From a virus (taxonomy: Duplodnaviria > Caudoviricetes): a DNA stretch of 37,793 nucleotides. The translations under genes were made by a program, and so were the position numbers. The stretch is from positions 1-37,793 of the IMG/VR virus record IMGVR_UViG_3300005589_000017, one strand, 5' to 3'. Each line of letters starts with the position of its first letter. Position 1 is the first letter of the stretch. Positions 2,549 to 37,793 of the stretch are shown here, piece after piece. The notes under the pieces were generated by a model. It did not search any database, was not told the DNA's origin, and saw nothing but the letters and a program-made list of their open reading frames with translations.

Positions 2549-2965
2549 ATGTTAGAAACACAAGTAGTATTAAAAATCTTATTAGATAATTACGAAAAAG
2601 GTAATAGGTGGTTATCTAACCTAGATATACAAGCAGGGTATCATATTGTAGAAAACCATACAAATAACGTATACTATGCTAATCTAAGCCGTAGGATATC
2701 AGATATAAGTATTACATTAACTGATGGTAATCCATTCCATATATTAAAAGACAATAACCATGCAGGGACTAGATATACAGCGTATAAGCTACCTAATCTT
2801 TCAGAAGAGGATGTAAGTATTTTAAAAGGTTATATCGTAAGTACCAAGCCTAACACTCCACTACATAGAAGAAGAGAAGTAGAGATTGTTAAAAGGCAAG
2901 AAGATCAGACTGTATGGACAAGAGCTATAAACGCTTATAATAAAGCAATAGATTATTTAAAATAG
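2549..2965 (+). CDS. Hypothetical protein, possibly winged-helix DNA-binding
   Basis: ORF with RBS; LSRRISDI resembles a wHTH recognition helix (weak). Confidence 0.6.
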   Translation: MLETQVVLKILLDNYEKGNRWLSNLDIQAGYHIVENHTNNVYYANLSRRISDISITLTDGNPFHILKDNNHAGTRYTAYKLPNLSEEDVSILKGYIVSTKPNTPLHRRREVEIVKRQEDQTVWTRAINAYNKAIDYLK

Positions 2966-2976
2966 GAGAACGGATT

Positions 2977-3336
2977 ATGGCAGATTTTCATGGCATGTGC
3001 AAAGCTTTAGAAGGCAAATTAAATGACATAGCAAGAGAGATAAAAGAAAAAGACATAAGAACAACAGAAGAAAAGCTTGTCGAAAAAATACTTGATATAG
3101 AGTTAGAAATATATAAGAGCAAAAATCTTGTTTTTGAGCAAATAGATTTTGCAGATATTCCACGAGATATCAGGCTACGGTATCCGGACCCTATGGCTTA
3201 TATTAAAGAAGAACAAGATAGAATTATAAAAAAACAGCAAATAAATATTGACAGGTTAAAAGAAAATTTAGAGATCTATAAAAAACAATATATATTTTTA
3301 CGCGATAAAAGAAAAGAATTATTAAAAGGAGAATAG
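2977..3336 (+). CDS. Hypothetical coiled-coil protein
   Basis: RBS AGGAG; tightly packed operon. Confidence 0.7.
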   Translation: MADFHGMCKALEGKLNDIAREIKEKDIRTTEEKLVEKILDIELEIYKSKNLVFEQIDFADIPRDIRLRYPDPMAYIKEEQDRIIKKQQINIDRLKENLEIYKKQYIFLRDKRKELLKGE

Positions 3337-27353: not shown

Positions 27354-27360
27354 TTATATC

Positions 27361-27410
27361 AGTCGGTGCGAACTACCCACGTATCGGCTGTCTATATCAC
27401 GGATGGGTAG
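27361..27410 (+). ncRNA. Predicted H-type pseudoknot
   Basis: 10-bp stem (27361-70/27380-89, three G-U pairs); loop CUACCCA pairs with UGGGUAG (27404-10). Confidence 0.55.
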
Positions 27411-27412
27411 AG

Positions 27413-27440
27413 GAGGCTTATTAATTTAGGCCTCTTTTTT
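27413..27440 (+). terminator. Intrinsic terminator at the convergence of the two arms
   Basis: gaggctta-ttaatt-taggcctc + T6. Confidence 0.8.
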
Positions 27441-27567
27441 ATTCATTATCATTTAATATAAAATATATTAAGCATGAAGCTTGGCAAATAAGGATTATAT
27501 ATAAAACAACTGCAGAAATAATAAGAAACAATTCAGACGCTGTGTAATTCTCTAATATATTTACCAT
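27439..27567 (-). CDS. 42-aa single-TM peptide
   Basis: Manual translation MVNILENYTASELFLIISAVVLYIILICQASCLIYFILNDNE. Confidence 0.5.
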   Translation of the reverse strand: MVNILENYTASELFLIISAVVLYIILICQASCLIYFILNDNE

Positions 27568-31639: not shown

Positions 31640-31668
31640 AATATAACACCTTGTATATGCAATTGCAA
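31640..31668 (-). promoter_or_regulatory. Early promoter with TGCAATTGCA palindrome
   Basis: TTGCAA-17-TATATT. Confidence 0.75.
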
Positions 31669-32561: not shown

Positions 32562-33061
32562 AACTCACTAAACCTTTCAAGCATTTTGTCAAATCTTTTA
32601 GAGCTGTACCCACTCTCTACCATATCATTAATTAAAGAATCGATAGCAAGCCTTGCTTTATCTTTTTCAACATAAGACCAGCTTAACTCTTTAATTTTTT
32701 TATTCTTAACCAATTGTACTAATTTAGGTTTTATAGATACATTAGGCATTTCTTTATAAACACTTAATAAAAACTCTCTAAGCTCAGTATCTATCTTTTG
32801 TTCTTCCTCTTTGATAAGACCAGCAATCTTTTTATAGTGGTATCTCATATCAAAATAATCATTAAAGCTAGATAGACCAGATTCCCAATACATAGATAAT
32901 AACATATGGAACGTTTTATTTTGCTCATCTGTCTTATGCTCTTCTGGAGTTCCTAAACGCATTTCAATAGTATCTGATTTAATCTCTTTAAGTTTATCTT
33001 CTATATCTGTACTTGCAAATTTGTTTTGAAACCATGTATTGGCTGATGTTTTTCTAATCAT
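32555..33061 (-). CDS. NinB/Orf-like recombination protein
   Basis: KTDEQNKTFHMLL motif; neighbours are SSB-like and DUF968-like genes. Confidence 0.55.
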   Translation of the reverse strand: MIRKTSANTWFQNKFASTDIEDKLKEIKSDTIEMRLGTPEEHKTDEQNKTFHMLLSMYWESGLSSFNDYFDMRYHYKKIAGLIKEEEQKIDTELREFLLSVYKEMPNVSIKPKLVQLVKNKKIKELSWSYVEKDKARLAIDSLINDMVESGYSSKRFDKMLERFSELW

Positions 33062-33276
33062 AACACACTCCTTAATCTATCTATTATTTCTCTACTTACT
33101 ATCTCGTCTTTATGGAATCCCTGAGATATATATCTTATGTATTGTGCACTAACACCGCTTCTTCTAGATATTATATCTGTAGATAGCTCACGTACCTTAA
33201 GAAGTATATCTTCTAATTCAGATGCTTTCATTGTTCGTCCTTCCATCAAATCTAACAATGGTAAATATTCTTCCAT
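33058..33276 (-). CDS. Small HTH (Cro-like) protein
   Basis: STDIISRRSGVSAQYIRYISQG; RBS GGAGGG before ATG 33276. Confidence 0.55.
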   Translation of the reverse strand: MEEYLPLLDLMEGRTMKASELEDILLKVRELSTDIISRRSGVSAQYIRYISQGFHKDEIVSREIIDRLRSVL

Positions 33277-33295
33277 TTGTCTACCCTCCATGCTG

Positions 33296-33322
33296 AGGCT
33301 GTTTAGCCCCAGCCTTTGGGCT
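33296..33322 (-). ncRNA. Predicted compact H-type pseudoknot
   Basis: AGCCC-aa-AGGCUG-GGGCU-aaa-CAGCCU. Confidence 0.4.
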
Positions 33323-33332
33323 TAGGTTTTAT

Positions 33333-33557
33333 TTAAAAGGGAATATCTGAGCTATCCTCTTCTTTTTCTTTTGGCTCTACAACATTAAGCCAAATCTTAC
33401 CATCCTTTGCGAATGCTGGTAGATTAATAGTATCATCAAGACAGATTGCCTCTTTACCATTTTGTTTAGTAATTAGAACACCAGCGTTAAACCATTGAGT
33501 TTTAACCTCTCCGTTTTTTGTTGTGTATTCTTTTGCTATTGATAGTTTTTTAGTCAT
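33333..33557 (-). CDS. Small ssDNA-binding protein (putative)
   Basis: EYTTKNGEVKTQWFNAG beta pattern; acidic tail ending DIPF. Confidence 0.7.
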   Translation of the reverse strand: MTKKLSIAKEYTTKNGEVKTQWFNAGVLITKQNGKEAICLDDTINLPAFAKDGKIWLNVVEPKEKEEDSSDIPF

Positions 33558-33570
33558 TTTGTTAACTCCT

Positions 33571-33774
33571 TTATTTAAATTCTATAAATCTATACATTTC
33601 ATCAGCCACTCTAGCTGACGATTTTCTATATTTAATTGCTCTTTGCTCATTATATGGATTTACAATACACATAATAGTTCTGATTATATATACACATGCA
33701 AATATTAAAACCAAAATAAAAATAGCGATAAGTTTAAATGGTAATTTTAATATGTTTAATAATAATGATCTCAT
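33571..33774 (-). CDS. Single-TM protein
   Basis: RBS AAGGA before ATG 33774. Confidence 0.6.
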   Translation of the reverse strand: MRSLLLNILKLPFKLIAIFILVLIFACVYIIRTIMCIVNPYNEQRAIKYRKSSARVADEMYRFIEFK

Positions 33775-33775
33775 T

Positions 33776-33940
33776 TTAATTTTCCTTTTTAATTCTCCAT
33801 ACTTGGAAAGCAATAAATACTAATGTCCCAAGTATAGTGTTTTGATAAAAGTTTATATCATTATGATATGTTAGTGATATCCATCCTAATACAGTCGATA
33901 CGTACCAGATAACCTCAAATATAAATATTAAATGTTTCAT
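33776..33940 (-). CDS. 54-aa two-TM protein (not in the ORF track)
   Basis: RBS AAGGAG; MKHLIFIFEVIWYVSTVLGW... Confidence 0.65.
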   Translation of the reverse strand: MKHLIFIFEVIWYVSTVLGWISLTYHNDINFYQNTILGTLVFIAFQVWRIKKEN

Positions 33941-33970
33941 TTTTGTTAACTCCTTTATTTAATTTATTAC

Positions 33971-33999
33971 AGTATAATACAGTTTATATGCAATTGCAA
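33971..33999 (-). promoter_or_regulatory. Early promoter with TGCAATTGCA palindrome
   Basis: TTGCAA-17-TATACT. Confidence 0.75.
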
Positions 34000-34021
34000 G
34001 TAAAATATATTATTTATTGTA

Positions 34022-34237
34022 TTAAAATATAAATCTTTCTTTTTTATGTTCAAATTCTTGTACAATAACATTACCTTTTTTTGTTTCCTTAACATAATAA
34101 TCTACATCTGTTGTTTCAAAATGTATAAAAGTCCAGAACATAGAACGCTTTCTTGATTCTTCAGATTTTTTTAACCATTCCTGAGCAGCTCTTACAGCTA
34201 ATATATTATTTTTACAATCTCTTAGTTTTATCTCCAT
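34022..34237 (-). CDS. Hypothetical protein
   Basis: RBS AAGGA. Confidence 0.6.
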   Translation of the reverse strand: MEIKLRDCKNNILAVRAAQEWLKKSEESRKRSMFWTFIHFETTDVDYYVKETKKGNVIVQEFEHKKERFIF

Positions 34238-34365
34238 CTCTCTATCCTTTCTTTAATTTCTTTTAATCTGTCTATCTCTTCAAACAAATCACTATTACCA
34301 ACACGCAAAGCTTTTGCTTCGAGTTTTAGTATAATATCGTTTAGTTCTATTATTAGATCGTCCAT
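34228..34365 (-). CDS. 45-aa helical protein (not in the ORF track)
   Basis: RBS GGAG; MDDLIIELNDIILKLEAK...ERWR. Confidence 0.55.
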   Translation of the reverse strand: MDDLIIELNDIILKLEAKALRVGNSDLFEEIDRLKEIKERIERWR

Positions 34366-34369
34366 TTAT

Positions 34370-35971
34370 TTACTCCGTTTCTGCTATTGCTCCAATTATA
34401 ATAGGACTACAACCATGTAACATATTAAAATTAGATTTTACATTTTCGTTTATGTTATTTATTTCTTCTGCTTTACCTCTTCTTATTTTAGTTATAACTT
34501 TGTTTTGTGCTTTATTAAAACATTCTGTACTGTACCAGTTGTCTCCAAACTTTTCGTTTAGTTTTTCTTCTACAGTTTCTAAATGCTTTTTATTAAAACC
34601 TCTTTGAATAACTAAATCACCAGTTTCTATAAATTGGAATCTTCTACCATCAAATATCATATCGATATTTTTAAGTTTTCCACCTCTATTTTTAGCCACT
34701 ATAAGCTCAGTCAATCCCTTGCTTTCTAATAGTGCACTCATAGCATACTTATACTCATTACTGTCTTTATACATCATTAGATCATTTGATAATGTGTATT
34801 CTTCTCTGTAAAGAAACAGAACCATATCAGAATCCTGCTCAATAGTTCCACTATCTCTTAAATCAGACAATACAGGACGCTTATTTATTCTACCTGAAAA
34901 TGTTCTATTAAGCTGTGCTAATGATAAAACTGGAATATTAAGCTCTTTAGCTATATTCTTTAATCCCATAGATATTTCACTCATCTGCATTTGCTTATTA
35001 TTACCATTAGCTTTTACTAGGTGCATATGGTCTATAATTAGAAGGTCTATATCTTGTTTTCTCTTTAGACTTATAGCTCTACTTCTTATTTGATTAATAT
35101 GCAATCCTGACTGCTCATCTATAATTATTGGAAGCGAGTCAATATATTTTTCAGCTTCTTGTACAATCTGCATTTGCTCTCTGGTTTTATATAAGCCCTT
35201 TTCAATCAGTTCTAAGCTTATCCCAGTATGAGAGGATATGAGACGGGATTTAATCTCTTCACGGGTCATTTCAAGGCTATTTATGGCTATCTTCTTGCCT
35301 TGCTTTGCTAAGTTATATGCTATATTGAAAGAAAAGCATGATTTACCACATCCTGTAGATGCTCCTAAAACGTATAGTTTAGATCCTTGTAATCCAGAAG
35401 TTAAAAGATCAAATTGTTCAAATCCAGTTTTAAGTCCTGTAATCGGATCATGTGTGTTGTAAGCTACCATAGACTTATCAAAAATAGATTCTGATTTACT
35501 GATATGTGCAAACCCACCTAGAGATGAAGAATCCTCACATGCTTCTGATATGCCATTCAGCAAACTTTCTTTTAGTTCTTTGGTTTTTCCTTTGCCAAGC
35601 AGTGATATATTATCTTGAAGAATAATTTGTAATCTTCTTTCGTCATATTTTTCTTTTACTATATGGCAGTATGTTTTGAAGTTAATCAAGTTACTAGGTA
35701 TTTCTAGAAGTTGTTTAGCAAAAGCAAGACCTCCAAGTTCTTTAAACCATTCATCACTACCAAGTTTGTTTGTTATGCTTGATGGATTAGCTGATAACCC
35801 GTCTAGGATTAGGTTTTTAATACATTCGTATATTTTGCCATGCTGAGATAAATAAAACACATCTTCTGTCAAAACAGTCATAGCATAATCGATATTGTTA
35901 TTGTTTTTGATTAGACAACCAAGCAAAGCATGTTCTGAGTTTATATCGTAAAGTTCTATAGATTGTTCCAT
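34370..35971 (-). CDS. dnaB: Replicative DNA helicase, DnaB family
   Basis: Walker A GASTGCGKS, SLEM, IIDHMHL, LAQLNR, DLRDSGTIEQDSD, AKNRGG. Confidence 0.95.
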   Translation of the reverse strand: MEQSIELYDINSEHALLGCLIKNNNNIDYAMTVLTEDVFYLSQHGKIYECIKNLILDGLSANPSSITNKLGSDEWFKELGGLAFAKQLLEIPSNLINFKTYCHIVKEKYDERRLQIILQDNISLLGKGKTKELKESLLNGISEACEDSSSLGGFAHISKSESIFDKSMVAYNTHDPITGLKTGFEQFDLLTSGLQGSKLYVLGASTGCGKSCFSFNIAYNLAKQGKKIAINSLEMTREEIKSRLISSHTGISLELIEKGLYKTREQMQIVQEAEKYIDSLPIIIDEQSGLHINQIRSRAISLKRKQDIDLLIIDHMHLVKANGNNKQMQMSEISMGLKNIAKELNIPVLSLAQLNRTFSGRINKRPVLSDLRDSGTIEQDSDMVLFLYREEYTLSNDLMMYKDSNEYKYAMSALLESKGLTELIVAKNRGGKLKNIDMIFDGRRFQFIETGDLVIQRGFNKKHLETVEEKLNEKFGDNWYSTECFNKAQNKVITKIRRGKAEEINNINENVKSNFNMLHGCSPIIIGAIAETE

Positions 35972-36588
35972 GCTTCTTGCTCCTCTTGTGTCATTGTTGG
36001 TTTAGATTGTTGTATTGAGTTCTTAGGTGGATATAATCCTGTGTAACCCTGCCCTATTGAATACTCAACAACTTCTTCTGGATTGTTAAACTGTTTTAGT
36101 TTTTTGTATTGAAATTCCCATTGCTCTGGAAGCTTCAAATTTTTTCTATAATTTAACCATTTCGATATGTATGGTATTAATTTTTCATCACATCCTTGAA
36201 TAAAAGAATCCTTTGTGTTAGTATTATTCTTATGTACTTTAGTACTATTATTATCTGACAACTTTTCTTGTGTAGGGGTACACAACTTTTCTTGTGTAGG
36301 GTAGTTAAGTAAATTTATGTACCTATTATCAATTTCTTTACTATTATCTTTATACGTAACAACCCTTTCAATATAACCTTTATCATCAAGCTGTTTAAGC
36401 CAGTTTTGAACTGATGTTTTACTAACATTGTATAACTCAGCAAAATAATTAGTAGATGCATTACATTGCCCATTCATATTAGTTAATGATGTTATTTCAG
36501 CATACAAAAGCTTTGCATTAGCAGAAAGATCCTTGTCGTACCGTACTGTAGCAGGAATTATTGAATAGTAACTTGGTTTATTTTTCAT
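35956..36588 (-). CDS. Phage replication initiator (N-terminal winged HTH, lambda O-like)
   Basis: YYSIIPATVRYDKDLSANAKLLYAEI, ASTNYFAELY; C-terminal SIGQGYTGL; internal iterons; lies next to DnaB. Confidence 0.9.
   Translation of the reverse strand: MKNKPSYYSIIPATVRYDKDLSANAKLLYAEITSLTNMNGQCNASTNYFAELYNVSKTSVQNWLKQLDDKGYIERVVTYKDNSKEIDNRYINLLNYPTQEKLCTPTQEKLSDNNSTKVHKNNTNTKDSFIQGCDEKLIPYISKWLNYRKNLKLPEQWEFQYKKLKQFNNPEEVVEYSIGQGYTGLYPPKNSIQQSKPTMTQEEQEAWNNL
36258..36301. repeat. Iteron pair, probable replication origin
   Basis: acaacttttcttgtgtaggg at 36258-36277 and 36282-36301 inside the initiator gene. Confidence 0.75.
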
Positions 36589-36756
36589 TGAAAAACCCTC
36601 TTGTTTTAAGAGAGCATAGCTACGCTAGAACGTAGTAGACCACGCTTCTCTTTATTTATTATACTTTACCGTCCCCAATTTTAAGTTATAACGGTGGGTA
36701 GAGGTTTTACTCTCCACCCTATAATAACTAAGGAGTTGGGGTCCTGTTTTTATCTA
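36589..36756 (-). promoter_or_regulatory. Long structured leader of the initiator gene (cassette 4 + switchable RBS hairpin)
   Basis: Promoter TTGCAA-17-TATAAT (36791-36763); long hairpin 36675-36742; alternative stems 36595-36652. Confidence 0.6.
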
Positions 36757-36794
36757 TCTTCTATTATAAACAACATATTTACACATTGCAAGTA

Positions 36795-36903
36795 AAAAAA
36801 TAAAAAAAAGACACCCTCTGCAGAAAGTGTCTTTGACCAAAACTGCATAATCTGTTTCACTTATACAGCTAGATACGTCTGTCTACTACATGGTAGATGA
36901 CTT
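36795..36903 (-). ncRNA. Putative sRNA cassette 3
   Basis: Promoter TTGCAG-17-TATTAT (36938-36910); two hairpins and terminator AAAGACACUUUCU/AGAGGGUGUCUUU+U. Confidence 0.65.
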
Positions 36904-36918
36904 AAATATATAATAACA

Positions 36919-37039
36919 CAAAAAATATCCCACTGCAACAACGCAATGGGAGGAAACCACGACAATACTTAATTGCCGTTAAATACACCCAAACCTATGA
37001 GTGCTAGTCAAGATTAACGCCTTATTGGCTAATAATCAT
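36919..37039 (-). ncRNA. Putative sRNA cassette 2
   Basis: Promoter TTTACT-17-TATATT (37074-37046); three hairpins and terminator UCCCAUUGCG-UUGU-UGCAGUGGGA. Confidence 0.65.
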
Positions 37040-37062
37040 AAATATAATATATCACACTAAAA

Positions 37063-37150
37063 CAAAAAAGTAAACCCCTACAACAACGCAGGGGCTAGTT
37101 AATTAAACGTGTTTAATATAGATTTGCTCTATGTCGCTAAACAAATCTAC
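37063..37150 (-). ncRNA. Putative sRNA cassette 1
   Basis: Promoter TTGCAA-17-TAGTAT (37183-37155); two hairpins and terminator AGCCCCUGCG-UUGU-UGUAGGGGUU. Confidence 0.65.
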
Positions 37151-37169
37151 AAATATACTACATGGTTAT

Positions 37170-37355
37170 TTAATTAATTGCAAGAAAATTTTTAACTTGA
37201 GTTTGTAGCATTGATTCCTTTCTTTTTAATTTTAATAATTCATCCTTTAATACTTCACGAGATATCTTGCACTTAAGACCTTTGATTCTATCTTCTAATT
37301 CCCAGATCTTTATAGTGATGTACGCCTGTTCAGCTCTCTTTTCTTGTATATTCAT
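37170..37355 (-). CDS. Hypothetical coiled-coil protein
   Basis: RBS AAGGGG. Confidence 0.6.
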   Translation of the reverse strand: MNIQEKRAEQAYITIKIWELEDRIKGLKCKISREVLKDELLKLKRKESMLQTQVKNFLAIN

Positions 37356-37365
37356 GTTAATCCCC

Positions 37366-37455
37366 TTATATTGCTAATTCAATTAATCTTAAAACCATAC
37401 TAAATAAAGGCATTAGTAACCAACCTAAAAATATTGTTAATCCTAGTTTGCTCAT
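37366..37455 (-). CDS. 29-aa hydrophobic peptide
   Basis: RBS AAGGA; MSKLGLTIFLGWLLMPLFSMVLRLIELAI. Confidence 0.5.
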   Translation of the reverse strand: MSKLGLTIFLGWLLMPLFSMVLRLIELAI

Positions 37456-37537
37456 TTTATCATCCTTTCATTTAATTAATCTTGCTTCCTATTATCTTAT
37501 ATATCCGAACAAAAGTAAAAACTGACTATAATACACT

Positions 37538-37793
37538 TTATAATCCTGAATATAATTTTATTTTATTGAATCTTTCTAAATTCTTACCTTTTAATTTGTT
37601 GTTATGTATGTTTTTGTGGCATTCCAGGCAGCAGTATATTACAACCAAAGGCTTGCTATAATCCTCATGATGGGCAAAAATCTTTTTATTTGGTTTTCTG
37701 CATATGCTACATTTATCTGGTTTTATCAATATTCCTGAATTTAAATAATTATAAAATGTATTTCTAGATTTTATATGCATTTCTTGTAATGAC
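37538..37793 (-). CDS. 3' part of the junction-spanning HNH endonuclease
   Basis: KPDKCSIC...AHHEDYSKPL...CLECHKNIH HNH signature. Confidence 0.85.
   Translation of the reverse strand, partial: SLQEMHIKSRNTFYNYLNSGILIKPDKCSICRKPNKKIFAHHEDYSKPLVVIYCCLECHKNIHNNKLKGKNLERFNKIKLYSGL
37764..37793. repeat. Terminal direct repeat / circular assembly overlap (copy 2)
   Basis: Identical to 1-30. Confidence 0.95.

Follow-up and report, generated by a model that had tools for sequence, protein, structure and literature searches.

Antisense control of a replication initiator is established in plasmids, where it is exerted by counter-transcribed RNAs (PMC5703833), and in satellite phage P4, where the processed CI RNA takes this role (PMC4825925). 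In pSK41, pT181 and pIP501 the antisense RNA (RNAI, or RNAIII in pIP501) defeats a pre-emptor in the leader of rep, repC or repR, and the stem-loop thereby induced at the rep start hides the RBS in pSK41 and terminates transcription in pT181 and pIP501 (PMC5703833). The P4 CI RNA comes from the same strand as its target and silences the phage's own replication genes by trans pairing with their leader region; IsrK of Gifsy-1 is a short terminated RNA that remodels a neighbouring leader by strand displacement (both in PMC4825925). In P1 and P7, the c4 RNA pairs close to the RBS of a downstream gene and so prevents its translation (PMC12197685); its Rfam entry is RF01695 (PMC2864571).

The locus described here lies in front of rep in the window, by which we mean the whole 37,793-nucleotide stretch of DNA that was analysed, and consists of three tandem predicted small RNAs (units 1 to 3, the last being sRNA 3) followed by the rep leader. 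Like the leaders of pSK41, pT181 and pIP501 (as outlined in PMC5703833), that of the window is predicted to have pre-emptor/stem-loop logic before rep, and the pT181-type feature, a stem-loop over the RBS just before rep with an upstream pre-empting pairing, is present in silico. The plasmid RNAs are counter-transcribed and fully complementary, whereas unit 3 lies upstream on the same strand and would offer 18 interrupted pairs; it also closes a tandem array of three units carried by a tailed phage, whereas pT181, pIP501 and pSK41 are plasmids. As a candidate same-strand RNA that would act on a downstream leader in the manner of P1 c4 and P4 CI, unit 3 fits in its geometry and predicted pairing. 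P4 CI, as presented in PMC4825925, is processed from a transcript and has two sites, upstream and downstream. For unit 3, by contrast, a separate promoter and terminator are predicted; a same-sense 11-nt copy lies upstream near 37165, and the one complementary site is found downstream. The c4 RNA controls an antirepressor via loop sequences, whereas the target in the window is rep-DnaB, displacement would occur 30-60 nt before the RBS and Rfam gives no match. IsrK activates translation and belongs to its own target, whereas sRNA 3 would repress a leader from a separate promoter. An earlier note on this DNA drew analogies with P1 C4 and P4 CI and with pT181 and pIP501; the predicted logic works like that of pT181/pSK41 and of P4 CI, but the element belongs to neither family, because its RNA is not counter-transcribed, has one target site and has no Rfam match. 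We found no description of the element in searches of the full text of open papers, although supplements of structured-RNA catalogues (e.g. PMC10690425) could contain it, and the available portions of PMC12197685 (a 2025 review of phage sRNAs), PMC2864571 and PMC7430163 do not describe it.

The phage genome and its replication genes

The 37,793-base virus record is a complete phage with direct terminal repeats and a G+C content of 32%. It is contained in two marine-sediment DNA runs, which may be its source and which show no variant letters; no RNA run was found to contain it. Terminase, capsid and tail genes are present, and the capsid is 27-30% alike to those of Pelagibacter phages HTVC010P and HTVC035P and of one uncultured phage; with the terminal repeats and these genes, and with no plasmid match to the region studied here, the record is that of a virus rather than of a plasmid replicon. 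The replication initiator gene rep (35956..36588, - strand, ATG at 36588) encodes 210 aa with an N-terminal HTH_36 domain (PF13730, E 5.8e-16), matches the replication initiation families phrog_19658/270 and is the first gene of a rep-DnaB operon. Its end is overlapped by the gene for a DnaB-like replicative helicase (34370..35971, - strand; phrog_19, E 1.7e-91), and a repeat scan lists two 13-nt repeats within rep (36262-36274 and 36286-36298) that may serve as iterons.

Searches of the phage genome with Phage_integrase and HTH_3, both of which were detected in 14/14 control genomes, gave no matches, and with no integrase found, the role in immunity that had been suggested for the switch lacks support. 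The related claim that the phage has no evident repressor agrees with the absence of HTH_3, but it needs two qualifications. ORF 1462-1896 has a Cro/C1-type HTH_26 match just above the cut-off (23 bits versus 22), and a 10-bp palindrome lies over the -35 of three other promoter-like sites (489-499 on the + strand, 31658-31668 and 33989-33999 on the - strand). The palindrome has 9 matches at one mismatch versus 1.24 expected (both strands counted) and is likely a protein operator, although it does not fully cover any of the promoter-like sites P1-P4 in front of rep. Candidate binders are ORF 1462-1896 and ORF 2549-2965 (a winged-helix lead only, atlas 0.85), a homologue of which (35%) stands directly upstream of the units in L104, the DNA of the closest relative.

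Several other structured elements were noticed in the window. An endonuclease-like ORF of 183 aa runs from 296 across the genome junction to 37538, and its leader (294-384, - strand; z -4.6) carries two copies of an 8-nt segment, one at the 5' end and the other over the RBS, while a hairpin loop lying between the copies presents the complementary sequence; pairing of this leader with any of the three units was considered and rejected, the net energies being positive throughout. Two strong hairpins follow the last late gene at the place where the two arms of the genome converge (27355-27445, + strand), probably an RNA element plus terminator. Two small early genes have RBS regions that lie within the copies of a direct repeat of 25 nt (96%; 33557-33581 and 33941-33965).

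Predicted small-RNA units and competing folds of the rep leader

The 580 nt between ORF 37355-37170 and rep carry four promoter-like and four terminator-like sites on the - strand, and in 33000-37793 as a whole there are 7 terminator-like sites versus 1.3 expected. The predicted small RNAs are unit 1 (~85 nt, 37064..37151; terminator 37096-37073, fold z -4.35), unit 2 (~120 nt, 36920..37039; terminator 36951-36928, z -4.79) and unit 3 (~104 nt, 36800..36903; terminator 36834-36807, z -3.25), all on the - strand, and each folds better than all 200 of its shuffles. The promoter-like sites that precede them on the same strand are P1 for unit 1 (37183-37155, overlapping the stop of ORF 37355-37170), P2 for unit 2 (37074-37046) and P3 (36910..36938), an extended -10 site that overlaps the unit 2 terminator and was found by a hand-made pattern, being absent from the generic scan; P4 (36763..36791, 10/12 consensus) would serve the rep leader. 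As the hand-made patterns were drawn up after the sites had been seen, their shuffle figure of 0/2000 is inflated, and the generic promoter scan lists two of P1-P4 with an overall count (23 versus 26.5 expected) that shows no excess. Rfam gave no match in the window at the gathering score; the four sub-threshold matches, in L001 and L104, are at chance level (E 1.7-2.6) and none is c4.

An 11-nt stretch of the unit 3 seed region (36894-36884) occurs again at 37166-37156 (- strand), around the -10 of P1. A 10-nt core is common to the unit 1 and unit 2 terminators (at 37090 and 36945, - strand), and together these repeats suggest that the units arose by local duplication. A likeness of the unit 3 5' hairpin to a CRISPR repeat was also considered and rejected; no array was seen.

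The predicted untranslated rep leader is ~168 nt long (36589..36756, - strand, its start being placed from P4) and has fold z values against shuffles of -2.9 in its 3' part and -2.1 in its 5' part. All the motifs for which an alternative pairing had been proposed are in place on the - strand: CUCUCUU at 36614-36608, AAGAGGG at 36602-36596 and the U5 run at 36595-36591, with the GAGG of the RBS at 36600-36597, 8 nt ahead of the rep ATG. Both folds proposed for CUCUCUU were recovered in ViennaRNA at near-equal energy. In the 'on' (pre-emptor or antiterminator) stem (36608..36652, - strand), the strands 36652-36641 and 36619-36608 are paired and enclose an inner hairpin, and the 5' strand carries a 4-nt bulge; in the 'off' hairpin (36595..36615, - strand) the RBS is hidden. 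The account of the latter as a terminator-like hairpin followed by UUUUU holds as to the hidden RBS, and the terminator scan lists 36615-36595, but the terminator is a weak one, with 3 G-C pairs, 5 U and -7.8 kcal/mol compared with -13 to -15 for the three upstream terminators. Since the hairpin is this weak and contains GAGG, RBS occlusion would be its main output and is likelier than termination.

Folding by transcript length suggests an order of events. A GGACC segment in the 5' region of the leader (36740..36744, - strand) pairs with GGUCU (36641-36637) transiently at lengths of 122-137 nt, and again in the 'off' fold. The 'on' stem is predicted with a probability of 0.997-1.0 at 151-157 nt, ahead of the complete RBS hairpin, and this early stem (P 1.0) is predicted at 37, 25, 15 and 5 C. 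At 37 C the hairpin has a probability of 0.50 when the transcript is 163 nt long, which drops to 0.15 by 167 nt. Our data suggest that the rep leader is a predicted two-state RNA, which is well supported in silico, and that its default co-transcriptional fold would be 'on', which is supported in silico and rests on a kinetic argument, because the two folds compete once the hairpin is complete.

A 21-codon frame runs from GTG 36717 to a stop at 36652, where the 'on' stem begins. A ribosome terminating there would block the stem, as in ribosome-mediated attenuation, and in L104 a 22-codon frame runs through the terminator hairpin of the leader (2530-2629, - strand). The GTG of the window frame has no upstream Shine-Dalgarno-like sequence and sits inside a stem. 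The L104 frame is not related to it, and frames of such a size abound here (17 of at least 20 aa overlap 36560-37500); we consider attenuation by a ribosome highly improbable.

In the model, taking away the 5' domain favours the 'on' state. Blocking 36756-36672 turns the model on (hairpin 0.005-0.009), and a transcript that lacks this domain is predicted to remain 'on', with a hairpin probability of no more than 0.08. The first of these results makes cis-antisense control less likely, in which a + strand counter-transcript, from a promoter at 36196-36224 in rep or at 36636-36665 in the leader, would act as in pT181/pMV158 and turn the leader off rather than on. Promoter-like sites are present on the + strand, and the L104 leader hairpin, which is flanked by A residues on its 5' side and U residues on its 3' side, could terminate transcription on both strands, including an antisense RNA begun inside rep; against this, the generic promoter count is not above chance (23 versus 26.5) and no + strand terminator was found in 36000-37000. 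Control by a cis-encoded RNA is therefore given little credence here.

The same leader could also be set by its own folding, through the GGACC:GGUCU pairing, temperature or the rate of transcription; a protein might also set it, or a second transcription start downstream of 36663-36658, which is a perfect -10 hexamer. The unit 3 match would then be a chance event or a relic of local duplication. The hairpin probability of the free full leader at equilibrium rises from 0.15 at 37 C to 0.60 at 25 C and 0.89 at 15 C, and this leaning towards 'off' at 15-25 C means that an RNA trigger may be unnecessary. The persistence of the 'on' state without the 5' domain points the same way, as do the copy of the 11-nt seed region in P1, which suggests local duplication, and the leaders of L104 and a more distant locus, L042, which have internal pairing between a 5' loop and the terminator and no match in trans. 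What argues against a purely intrinsic switch is that the raw unit 3 match is rare (1/309 shuffles) and falls on precisely that strand which must be taken away for the switch to flip; the internal -10 of the second start has no usable -35 and is absent from the promoter scans. On balance we think an intrinsic switch somewhat unlikely, though it is the chief alternative.

Predicted pairing between sRNA 3 and the leader

The pairing reported in the earlier note joined GUCUACUACGU (36640-36630, - strand) to AUGUAGUAGAC (36891-36881, - strand), and both 11-mers are where they were said to be. The match is real but longer than described, with 18 pairs over 21/20 nt, between the unit 3 pairing segment 36891-36871 and leader positions 36649-36630 (both - strand). 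The helix is made of 11 + 4 + 3 pairs and also supplies partners for the 4-nt bulge of the 'on' stem, so that the 20-nt target (36630..36649, - strand) takes in the 11-mer, the bulge and most of the 5' strand of that stem. The seed lies, as claimed, in the first hairpin of unit 3; it is partly paired inside this weak hairpin and costs ~5.3 kcal/mol to open.

On raw energy the match stands out. The hybrid of unit 3 with the leader has about -22.5 to -23 kcal/mol, which was equalled in 1/309 shuffles of the unit 3 body, compared with 117/366 for unit 1 and 186/206 for unit 2, and the 11-bp helix arose in 3/150 unit 3 shuffles. When nt 9-36 of sRNA 3 were used as the query, a segment picked after the match had been seen, the leader site was the best of 104 genome sites under -15 kcal/mol (raw energy); with nt 1-30 it was 3rd on raw energy among 12,573 windows scanned, and it was again 3rd genome-wide after correction for accessibility. 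Besides the target itself, 36881-36891 is the sole genome site within 1 mismatch of the 11-mer, and at 2 mismatches the 8 matches found, versus 6.3 expected, are no excess. For units 1 and 2 no leader target was found, all net binding energies being positive; a 10-bp pairing of the unit 1 terminator arm with the leader loop was rejected, being found in 25/150 shuffles and net positive.

The co-folding that had been proposed as a check gave the expected outcome, the probability of the RBS-hiding hairpin rising from 0.15 in the free leader to 0.99 with sRNA 3 bound, and with the target blocked the unpaired probability of the Shine-Dalgarno sequence at 37 C is 0.02, compared with 0.56 in the free leader. 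Net binding is weaker than the raw energies, with a net energy of sRNA 3 with the nascent leader of -7.7 and a dimer ensemble binding of -9.35 kcal/mol for the nascent and -5.64 kcal/mol for the full leader; such predicted energies would imply a micromolar or weaker affinity without a chaperone. With accessibility counted, 30/588 shuffles equal sRNA 3 on the nascent leader, which is borderline, and on the full leader sRNA 3 is no better than shuffles (319/501 equal or better). In the dimer test 107/634 shuffles bind as well and 37/634 both bind as well and flip the switch; with three units tested, chance overall would account for such a match at a level of no better than a few percent. A statistic on whole-length duplexes also flags unit 1 (3/150) and L104 unit A (0/150) and, being thus unspecific, was given no weight. 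The claim that sRNA 3 flips the leader to off is partly supported: the model does flip to the RBS-hiding hairpin, while the accessibility-corrected statistics are borderline.

The lack of any advantage over shuffles in net binding to the finished leader, and the lack of a leader target for units 1 and 2, would suit a locus with no regulated switch at all, where the long stem frees the RBS or stabilises the mRNA and the three small RNAs act on the host or on other phage targets. That the two folds are near-equal in energy and have CUCUCUU in common, and that a terminator-type leader stands before rep again in L104 and L042, argues otherwise, and such an arrangement seems to us quite unlikely.

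The reading that we prefer is that sRNA 3 acts in trans and switches the two-state rep leader off, a tentative model-based proposal that falls a little short of being probable. In the leader alone, the long stem would form before the RBS hairpin is finished, and rep and DnaB would be on by default. The sRNA 3 made from unit 3, on the same strand and just upstream, would act in trans on the leader, binding best while this is nascent and entering at the 4-nt bulge. It would take away the 5' strand of the 'on' stem and CUCUCUU would pair with the RBS; the main output would presumably be blocked translation, as in pSK41, although the weak U run may also allow a degree of termination. As sRNA 3 accumulates with time and genome number, it may exert negative feedback on the replication proteins, and it may possibly block a second phage of the same type.

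Relatives of the locus and possible implications for phage replication

The closest rep is that of P0002 (54% over 89% of length), whose DNA is L104. By blastn L104 and the window region have only 14-18-nt matches and are unalignable. The layout is as in the window: tandem promoter-hairpin-terminator units, then a promoter, a terminator-hairpin leader and rep, with promoter-like sites at 3261, 3190, 3048, 2868 and 2664. As in the window, the upstream ORF terminates within the first of these sites, and the second shares sequence with the previous terminator arm. The L104 hairpin units have fold z values of -3.0 and -4.8; the leader is 111 nt long (z -4.3), and a long terminator hairpin closes it in front of rep. 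The loop of the 5' hairpin in this leader could form 7 bp with the interior of the terminator hairpin, a longer counterpart of the window's pairing around a GGACC/GGUC core as there, and would be predicted to prevent termination, the opposite outcome to that in the window. Pairing of the L104 units with the leader is not significant (unit C 14/69 and unit A 75/932 shuffles; unit B net positive). A pairing of the unit B loop with unit C looked neat by eye but was rejected, 42/75 shuffles being equal; unit C itself (2674-3013, - strand) has its hairpin twice with a variable loop and may be two units.

In the distant rep locus L042 (2560-3000) a single structured unit and a promoter precede the leader, in which there is a match between the 5' loop and the loop of the terminator; no sense-strand helix of at least 10 bp was found between the upstream unit and this leader. 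The recurrence of the layout in relatives supports a function of the units and the leader; the putative trans seed, on sequence comparison, is known in the window genome only.

Wider searches yielded no alignable relative in which co-variation of seed and target could be followed. The rep search of viral_contigs gave 4 distant loci only and the DnaB search 5 loci at 25-28%; the exact 17-mer of the target had no match, and the 80 kept of 193 hits in the rep alignment search match in the N-terminal domain only. A pattern for the rep C-terminal peptide found 9 metagenome stretches; one of them, L108, has the same sequence as the window, and L104 is the sole true relative; in the viral set its single stretch was rejected as not a rep. 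DnaB alignment in viral_contigs, and alignment of P0127 and of the capsid in genome_contigs, yielded no relative, and the DNA of the region gave 5 chance-level matches against phages and none against plasmids. A terminator-plus-promoter pattern was discarded after it returned 44 loci, none related to the window, and as unrelated loci match it in this number, the terminator arm common to the window and L104 is of a general kind and does not indicate homology.

The phage G001 has structural genes in common with the window (capsid 77%) and a different replication module; it carries a ~500-nt non-coding region with several hairpins at a divergent promoter (L020, 8280-8780). The DnaB of P0127 is 80% identical to that of the window and lies on a 312-kb contig, possibly in an integrated relative. 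Among further proteins, P0128 is 44% alike and P0246 belongs to its cluster. In an unrelated phage group (L112, L113, L119, L122, L129, L140-L143 and L146) a conserved non-coding unit lies just 5' of the matched terminator arm, and its terminator loop presents an anti-Shine-Dalgarno-like sequence ahead of a ~291-aa gene. Of 84 rep loci, 21 have more than 120 nt free of ORFs upstream, and none has the GGAC..GTC motif pattern; 5 of the 21 were followed further. In the distant HTH_36 rep loci L025 and L027, the 170 nt before rep have repeat-complement-repeat designs that end at the RBS, and L034, L067 and L089, also distant HTH_36 rep loci, have leaders with long stems.

More broadly, it is conceivable, although we think it unlikely, that these marine phages place replication under a tandem array of independently transcribed small RNAs before rep, the last of which shuts the leader by strand displacement in trans. 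Such phages would thereby obtain feedback on copy number, or exclude superinfecting phages, with neither an integrase nor a CI repressor, and seed and target would be rewired between relatives to form an RNA specificity code. If sRNA 3 does act on the rep leader in this way, a separately transcribed and only partly complementary RNA from a three-unit array in an integrase-less tailed phage would be a new wiring of antisense rep control, in a module of ~600 nt in all, and would suggest how such phages limit replication or exclude their kin without a classical repressor.
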